Source: Escherichia phage CharmingMan. Taken from it: DNA of 40,665 bases. This document shows positions 11,715-12,175 of the stretch, in pieces. The stretch is taken from the sequence record PP925830.1; one strand, 5' to 3'. The translations under genes and the position numbers were made by a program. The number at the start of each line of letters is the position of its first letter. Within the stretch, counting starts at the first letter, position 1. Under the pieces are notes generated by a model. That model did not search any database. It saw nothing but the letters and a program-made list of their open reading frames with translations, and was not told where the DNA came from.

Positions 11715-11916
11715 TTTGCGCCTCCGAGACCTTCTTAAAATATTGTTGGAACTTCCAGACAGGCTGCATGCATTCATGCGGATAATCCTGCCTGGTGAAG
11801 TACACCTGCTGCTTATCCCGATTCCAGCCGGTGACATGCACAATCACACCGCGCGGATCGCGATAATCGATATCCAATGGCTTAACTTGGTTTTCGGTAG
11901 TGATTGGATGTGACAT
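11707..11916 (-). CDS. Hypothetical protein at the cII position
   Basis: ATG 11916 (MSHPITTENQ...) with GAGGTG upstream, 1 nt after the cro stop; its stop overlaps the initiator start (ATGCGTGA). No motif recognised. Confidence 0.45.
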   Translation of the reverse strand: MSHPITTENQVKPLDIDYRDPRGVIVHVTGWNRDKQQVYFTRQDYPHECMQPVWKFQQYFKKVSEAQNA

Positions 11917-11917
11917 G

Positions 11918-12175
11918 TCACACCTCATTATTCTCAGGGGTGGACTCTGTACCCTTTAGTTCTGGCCAGATGCGTTGCCAGTTTTCAGGGTTAAGTGACT
12001 GACGGCTTACAGCTCCTCCGCTTTGGATCTCAATTTGTACGCAAATTTCAGGACCAATCACTGAGCCGGTGCTCATAACCTTGCGCAAATAGTTGATTGT
12101 TGTCCCGCAACTTTCCGCGAAAGCCCTTTTCTGTCTTGGTGAAAGGCTAGCCATGTATCTCTTTAACGTTTCCAT
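11918..12175 (-). CDS. cro: Cro-like HTH regulator
   Basis: 85 aa, divergent from cI across an operator-rich 98-bp region; HTH-like segment QKRAFAESCGTTINYLRKV; GAGG RBS 6 nt upstream of ATG 12175. Confidence 0.6.
   Translation of the reverse strand: METLKRYMASLSPRQKRAFAESCGTTINYLRKVMSTGSVIGPEICVQIEIQSGGAVSRQSLNPENWQRIWPELKGTESTPENNEV

Follow-up and report, generated by a model that had tools for sequence, protein, structure and literature searches.

Introduction

Translational coupling between neighbouring genes has been described by two models, termination-reinitiation and RNA unfolding, and is most efficient when the distance between the upstream stop and the downstream start is short (PMC12548453). 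Where the spacing is very short, the ribosome still terminating upstream keeps a new one (30S) from loading (PMC12548453). The described coupled pairs include genes VII/IX of phage f1, the coat-lysis pair of MS2/fr and genes in E. coli operons; in these pairs the stop codon lies close to the downstream AUG, the Shine-Dalgarno (SD) sequence is embedded in the upstream coding sequence, and a predicted structure over the ribosome-binding site contains the stop codon (PMC12548453). The junction analysed here, where a Cro-like gene of a lambdoid phage meets a gene for a DUF4222 protein, has all of these features, with only 1 nt between stop and start. Unlike in the known pairs, coupling is argued here from geometry, and the hairpin is short (7 bp, of which one or two are G.U), shows no covariation and carries the AUG in its loop instead of in a paired segment.

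Another relevant system is the module boundary of lambdoid phages, for which the boundary-sequence model is an established proposal; the alternative model holds that illegitimate recombinants are filtered by selection for function (PMC3233612). As in the described boundary sequences (PMC3233612), the locus considered here has a short block at a gene boundary, with unrelated Cro/immunity types on one side and a common module on the other, and the two sides reassort. The block differs from the boundary model in that it consists of translation signals throughout, and selection after the exchange explains it equally well.

The junction also includes a DNA palindrome, which calls for a comparison with known protein-binding sites. 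The CRP site has the form TGTGA-N6-TCACA (22 bp), with half-sites 6 bp apart, while sites of the LacI family need a central CG. The palindrome has the same pentamer half-sites as the CRP site and differs from it in their spacing. The symmetric lac operator lacOsym, AATTGTGAGCGCTCACAATT, has the spacing TGTGA-N4-TCACA (PMC3922697); the palindrome shares these half-sites and the N4 spacing, with 10/14 core bases identical, and has neither the central CG of lacOsym nor AATT on its flanks. Unlike the CRP and lac sites, it lies in coding sequence and not at a promoter, and its symmetry is not conserved in relatives. As for the downstream gene, RgdR, which is encoded by a prophage of EHEC O157:H7 and activates type III secretion via Ler (PMC10877973), was the sole characterised DUF4222 protein found in the literature, in which we found nothing on this junction.

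Results

Organization of the cro-DUF4222 junction

The window, that is, the whole stretch of 40,665 nucleotides analysed here (Escherichia phage CharmingMan, PP925830.1), represents a lambdoid siphophage of mosaic composition whose relatives include Fraca (Hendrixvirinae), LMessi, Fostie and mEp235. A Cro-like helix-turn-helix gene of 85 aa lies on its minus strand (11918..12175; PHROG 35, transcriptional repressor, E 2e-9; the ORF also gives a sub-threshold YdaS-like Pfam match), divergent from a cI-like S24 repressor gene at 12274..12951(+). The Cro-like gene ends with a TGA stop (11918..11920, minus strand) that is invariant in all MS-clade relatives. After a single spacer nucleotide, C at 11917, the likewise invariant ATG (11914..11916, minus strand) opens a co-oriented gene of 69 aa (11707..11916, minus strand), whose product was assigned to DUF4222 (Pfam PF13973, E 4.5e-13; PHROG 1343, E 1.6e-28); 70 homologues were found. 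At its 3' end this gene shares 8 nt with the beginning of an O/DnaD-like replication gene, and a primase-helicase gene comes next. An earlier sequence-only reading had called it the cII-position gene, which is correct for its position, whereas by identity it encodes a DUF4222 protein.

The SD sequence of the DUF4222 gene, GAGG (11923..11926, minus strand), is located within the last Cro-like codons GAG GTG, 6 nt from the ATG, and its rAGG is nearly invariant in 68 relatives. The minus-strand block reads GAG GTG TGA C ATG TCA CAT. Because the stop and start are only 1 nt apart and the SD sequence lies inside cro, we argue for translational coupling of the two genes; in addition, as loading of a new ribosome is blocked at very short spacing, reinitiation would be favoured at this junction. 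With such a good SD sequence (GAGG, 6-nt spacing), independent initiation of the DUF4222 gene is possible as well. We consider it reasonably probable (roughly 60%) that the palindrome is the footprint of an ordinary junction for translational coupling, with signals that are self-complementary by coincidence, and that this junction is also the conserved joint of a mosaic boundary.

Another in-frame ATG (11928-11926) was rejected as the true DUF4222 start, being missing in many relatives (which read CTGAGG, CAGAGG, AAAGG or ATAAGG), and the comparative data favour the ATG 1 nt past the TGA. A number of database calls for DUF4222 proteins of 99-111 aa (LMessi L001 CDS0016; P0001, P0003, P0005, P0008 and others) look N-terminally over-extended into cro, and in LMessi a 75-aa Cro-like ORF ending at the TGA is apparently unannotated.

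The palindrome and its chance expectation

The sequence-only reading had pointed to a perfect 14-bp palindrome holding both the cro TGA and the next ATG, and this was borne out: positions 11909..11922 read TGTGACATGTCACA identically on both strands and include the TGA (11920-11918) and the ATG (11916-11914). The symmetry ends at 14 bp, with A at 11908 against C at 11923. Allowing one G.T pair, the palindrome extends on the minus strand to an imperfect inverted repeat of 18 nt, GGTGTGA-CATG-TCACATC (11907..11924), which as RNA gives a 7-bp stem (one G.U) with a CAUG tetraloop; in four relatives, phage Fraca among them, the repeat is a perfect 18-mer.

The window contains six perfect palindromes of at least 14 bp, compared with 2.8-2.9 expected from dinucleotide shuffles (P(>=6) ~0.05). 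Since 92% of the shuffles hold at least one such palindrome, the existence of a 14-bp palindrome alone is not significant. At a given TGA-N-ATG junction, we infer that five further specified bases are needed for the palindrome, or about 1/4096 per junction. What is above chance is not the symmetry; it is the retention of the block GAGGTGTGA-N-ATGTCRCA beside at least nine unrelated upstream genes.

Conservation of the junction among relatives

Four viral-contig scans and one genome scan yielded 310 loci, which were reduced to 107 distinct regions after de-duplication. The genome scan for distant relatives contributed only four loci; the diversity came from three extra viral-contig scans with distant DUF4222 proteins, many of which re-hit the same contigs. 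Among the 107 distinct regions, 68 form the clade in which TGA-N-ATG lies 17 codons before a conserved YRDPRG motif. TGA-N-ATG, with its +1 nt spacing, is invariant in all 68, and across these 68 distinct junctions at least nine unrelated Cro families end in rAGGTGTGA-N-ATGTC(A/G)CA.

The palindrome follows a different pattern from the block, being perfect in 22 of the 68 distinct junctions and having lost its symmetry in the other 46. The commonest allele, TGTGATATGTCGCA (27/68), has five of seven symmetric pairs and is not a DNA palindrome. All but two of the palindrome positions are pinned, either by the Val codon with the SD sequence, by the stop or start codon, or as one of the first two bases in the Ser and His codons; the two that are not pinned, namely the spacer (C/T/A) and the Ser wobble base (A/G), both vary, and that is why only 22 of the 68 are perfect palindromes.

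The ATGTCACA codons are kept even in a clade whose codons 4-10 have wholly diverged. Residues 1-10 of the DUF4222 protein fall outside the Pfam/PHROG domain, so coding constraint is not an obvious cause of this conservation, which hints at a constraint at the nucleotide level, from either RNA structure or the context of the translation-initiation region. In several other DUF4222 clades (N-termini MTDE, MTT, MSE and others), the gene likewise starts a few nucleotides from the upstream stop (ATGA, TAATG, TAA-CC-ATG, GTGAGTGA), and such a palindrome is absent from these clades; in the Klebsiella MFPET clade the junction is arranged otherwise. Two additional arrangements were observed. At the junction just upstream of position 1501, loci L028 and L031 carry a natural 7-bp tandem duplication, GGTGTGA-GGTGTGA, which puts the cro stop 8 nt before the ATG and thus represents a natural spacing variant of the joint. 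In the MTDE clade (L189-L223), whose DUF4222 start and upstream stop overlap as ATGA or TAATG, the DUF4222 start codon is part of another inverted repeat, ATGACC-N5-GGTCAT.

Protein-binding interpretations of the palindrome

The perfect dyad symmetry might suggest a DNA operator for a dimeric protein, such as host CRP, a LacI-family repressor, or a phage protein, for example the DUF4222 product. The half-sites are CRP-like and, at N4 spacing, lacOsym-like (10/14; PMC3922697), and RgdR shows that a DUF4222 protein can be a regulator (PMC10877973). Against this reading, the symmetry is gone in 46 of the 68 distinct relatives exactly at the unconstrained bases, and the site lies within coding sequence, ~250 nt downstream of the promoter/operator region. 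The 4-bp spacer sets it apart from a CRP site, a point on which the sequence-only reading ("probably not CRP") had been reasonable. It also departs from a LacI/GalR-type operator: its centre is CATG and not GCGC, its flanks are GAGG/TCCA, and the central CG is missing.

The phage appears to have operators of another kind. The motif TACC-N4-GGTA occurs six times in the window (0.22 expected): three copies lie in the cI-cro intergenic region in an OR-like arrangement (12210-12221, 12235-12246 and 12250-12261), two are found just downstream of cI in an OL-like one (13079-13090 and 13105-13116), and one lies inside cI (12725-12736). CI and Cro of this immunity type presumably use these copies as their operators. 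The palindrome is unlike this motif and was excluded as a CI/Cro operator; because the block is constant across immunity types, with at least nine Cro families represented, the palindrome cannot be an immunity-specific operator, and the earlier suggestion of a binding site for a phage regulator is not supported, given this evidence together with the loss of symmetry in relatives.

A regulon based on further copies was also rejected. With up to three mismatches, the window holds two matches in all against 1.69 expected, and the only one besides the palindrome itself, TGTGACACGTCACG at 8058-8071 (two mismatches), is at chance level and sits within a Q-like antiterminator ORF (7624..8406, minus strand). 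Overall, we regard an operator function of the palindrome as very improbable. Neither a promoter-like nor a terminator-like signal lies near the site. In 11600-12400 nothing terminator-like was found, and the stem is followed by CCAAUCAC; an intrinsic terminator of the tR1-like type, with a GC-rich stem and a U-run, was rejected.

A predicted RNA hairpin over the DUF4222 start

The other idea of the sequence-only reading was an mRNA hairpin that couples translation of the downstream gene to cro, and this is the better of the two. A 26-nt RNA segment at the junction is predicted to fold at -8.1 kcal/mol (z = -3.1 against shuffles) into the hairpin GGUGUGA-CAUG-UCACAUC, in which a 7-bp stem displays the AUG in its tetraloop. 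Half of the SD sequence is paired, its 3' GG being part of the left arm (P(unpaired) of the SD ~0.3), and the TGA stop lies within the 5' arm. Such stability is reached by 4.4% of all 26-nt windows in the phage and by none of the 77 crude ORF-start regions in the window (mean -2.3, sd 1.9 kcal/mol). A comparison of 11500-12400 with Rfam, covering both strands, yielded no hit at E <= 1.

These properties raise the possibility that the hairpin itself is the selected feature. In such a scenario, the stem GGUGUGA/UCACAUC would hide half of the SD sequence and hold the AUG in the tetraloop, thereby silencing independent initiation, until the stem is opened by a ribosome that terminates at the UGA within the 5' arm; DUF4222 synthesis would then strictly need cro translation. 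The position of the stop inside the 5' arm is what the RNA-unfolding model requires (PMC12548453). The fold is also widespread: 64 of the 68 distinct relatives fold at -7 kcal/mol or lower, though the DNA palindrome is present in only 22, and an island, GAGGTGTGACATGTCACAY, is conserved where both flanks diverge. The stable fold is retained in these 64 because the polymorphisms common in the right arm are all transitions, with A or G facing U and C or U facing G, so that a Watson-Crick or G.U pair remains; a double change in L069, CAC to TGC, keeps pairing as well.

However, the left arm is G/U-rich, so that any right-arm transition pairs, and the pattern is what neutral drift would produce. 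No compensatory change was detected in the stem, and the proportion of paired cells (88.1%) equals that in column shuffles (88.4%). Uncompensated left-arm changes occur in four lineages (L044, L078, L082/83 and L148), some of which fall to -2.8 kcal/mol, and right-arm pairs are broken in L076 and L077. Folding of 101 nt around the site gave nothing out of the ordinary (z = -0.04), and a competing pairing took over in the minimum-free-energy structure. Furthermore, by an argument in PMC12548453, the 1-nt stop-start gap makes unfolding alone not the natural mechanism, and the hairpin is missing from other DUF4222 clades. Selection for the hairpin is a possible but less probable explanation, although a role for it as a helper of coupling is plausible from the predicted fold. 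The coupling part of the earlier proposal, then, agrees with the geometry, the SD sequence in cro and the folding energy, while selection on the hairpin finds no support in the covariation data.

A mosaic boundary at the joint

The block coincides with an edge of homology, as the Megablast matches with LMessi, Fraca and E. coli prophages run out at ~11929-11930. On one side of this short conserved block are unrelated Cro families, which have an exact run of only 4-22 nt in common before the ATG. The major families 0, 1, 2, 3 and 5 each occur with both perfect and imperfect alleles of the palindrome, a distribution that shows reassortment of Cro families and junction alleles at or near the joint; every combination of family and allele is represented. 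Several of the families (1, 2, 3 and 5) have a longer common tail, TTCCCnCAyCCGGGnAATGAGGTGTGA (FPHPGNEV*).

One explanation for such a pattern is that the block is a conserved linker for homologous recombination between lambdoid phages, kept since immunity modules can swap against the replication module, with the palindrome irrelevant or secondary. The position of the homology edge, the joining of at least nine Cro families to one block, the allele reassortment and the longer tail would all fit a linker. Yet 4-22 nt of exact identity is not much for RecA- or Red-type exchange to work efficiently, the same pattern is predicted if illegitimate recombination is followed by selection that keeps the SD-stop-start arrangement intact (PMC3233612), and the data, which show reassortment, resolve crossover points no more finely than ~20 nt. 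We regard the linker as a tentative explanation, which is compatible with the preferred one of an ordinary coupling junction.

A bolder combination of these ideas sees in the ~19-nt SD-stop-start block a joint dedicated to exchange, whose identity is kept for swaps of Cro/immunity cassettes onto the DUF4222-replication module and whose self-complementary RNA enforces coupling. We judge it to be improbable. If true, any incoming Cro would drive an RgdR-like DUF4222 protein at a fixed ratio, making the block a portable "plug".

Other palindromes in the window

A second perfect 14-bp palindrome, ATAGTCATGACTAT (14012-14025), spans the TAG of a 35-aa ORF (13908..14015) and the ATG of a 74-aa ORF (14018..14242). 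The hairpin it would form is weak (-1.9 kcal/mol), and three relatives (AsXd-1, ST16-OXA48phi5.3 and LMessi) read GGTAATTATGAG instead. Being unconserved, it was rejected as a sign of a general conserved junction motif, and it indicates that tight CATG-centred junctions can yield palindromes incidentally. CATG-centred palindromes number three in the window against 0.24 expected (post hoc P ~0.002, or ~0.03 when corrected for the 16 possible centres); this enrichment is mild, and counts mildly against the explanation by incidental symmetry.

Among the perfect palindromes of the window, the longest measures 18 bp, GTCCGATTCGAATCGGAC (11173-11190), and lies in the O/DnaD-like replication gene beside an acidic EQ-repeat-coding stretch. 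By analogy with lambda O it could belong to a replication origin, but its surroundings showed no clear iterons.

Discussion

The reading that we prefer for this locus, an ordinary coupling junction with incidentally self-complementary signals, can be laid out as follows. About 19 nt of the minus strand would pack the SD sequence GAGG, the cro TGA, a spacer base, the DUF4222 ATG and the codons Ser-His (TCA CAY). Ribosomes ending cro would halt 1 nt from the AUG and either start again at it or give way to a new initiation, and from this geometry the output of DUF4222 protein is expected to be proportional to that of Cro. The symmetry would derive mainly from the self-complementary TGA/TCA and the central CATG, with the outer TG/CA matching by happenstance. 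The same block would join at least nine unrelated Cro (immunity) modules to the DUF4222-replication module, forming a mosaic boundary. The 7-bp hairpin may damp independent initiation and so reinforce coupling; it seems to be tolerated or auxiliary and not required.

Coupling junctions and mosaic boundaries are already known, and the junction described here is a further example of them. It provides a clean, densely sampled mosaic boundary built from translation signals only. It also calls for caution, in that a stop/start junction can give rise to a CATG-centred perfect palindrome that is no protein-binding site. The finding matters mostly for annotation, for it fixes the true DUF4222 start. 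As to the biology, expression of the DUF4222 gene probably keeps pace with that of Cro in lambdoid prophages of enterobacteria that form a widespread group. The precedent of RgdR suggests that the DUF4222 gene in the cII position could be a regulator, and its co-expression with Cro may accordingly carry regulatory meaning.
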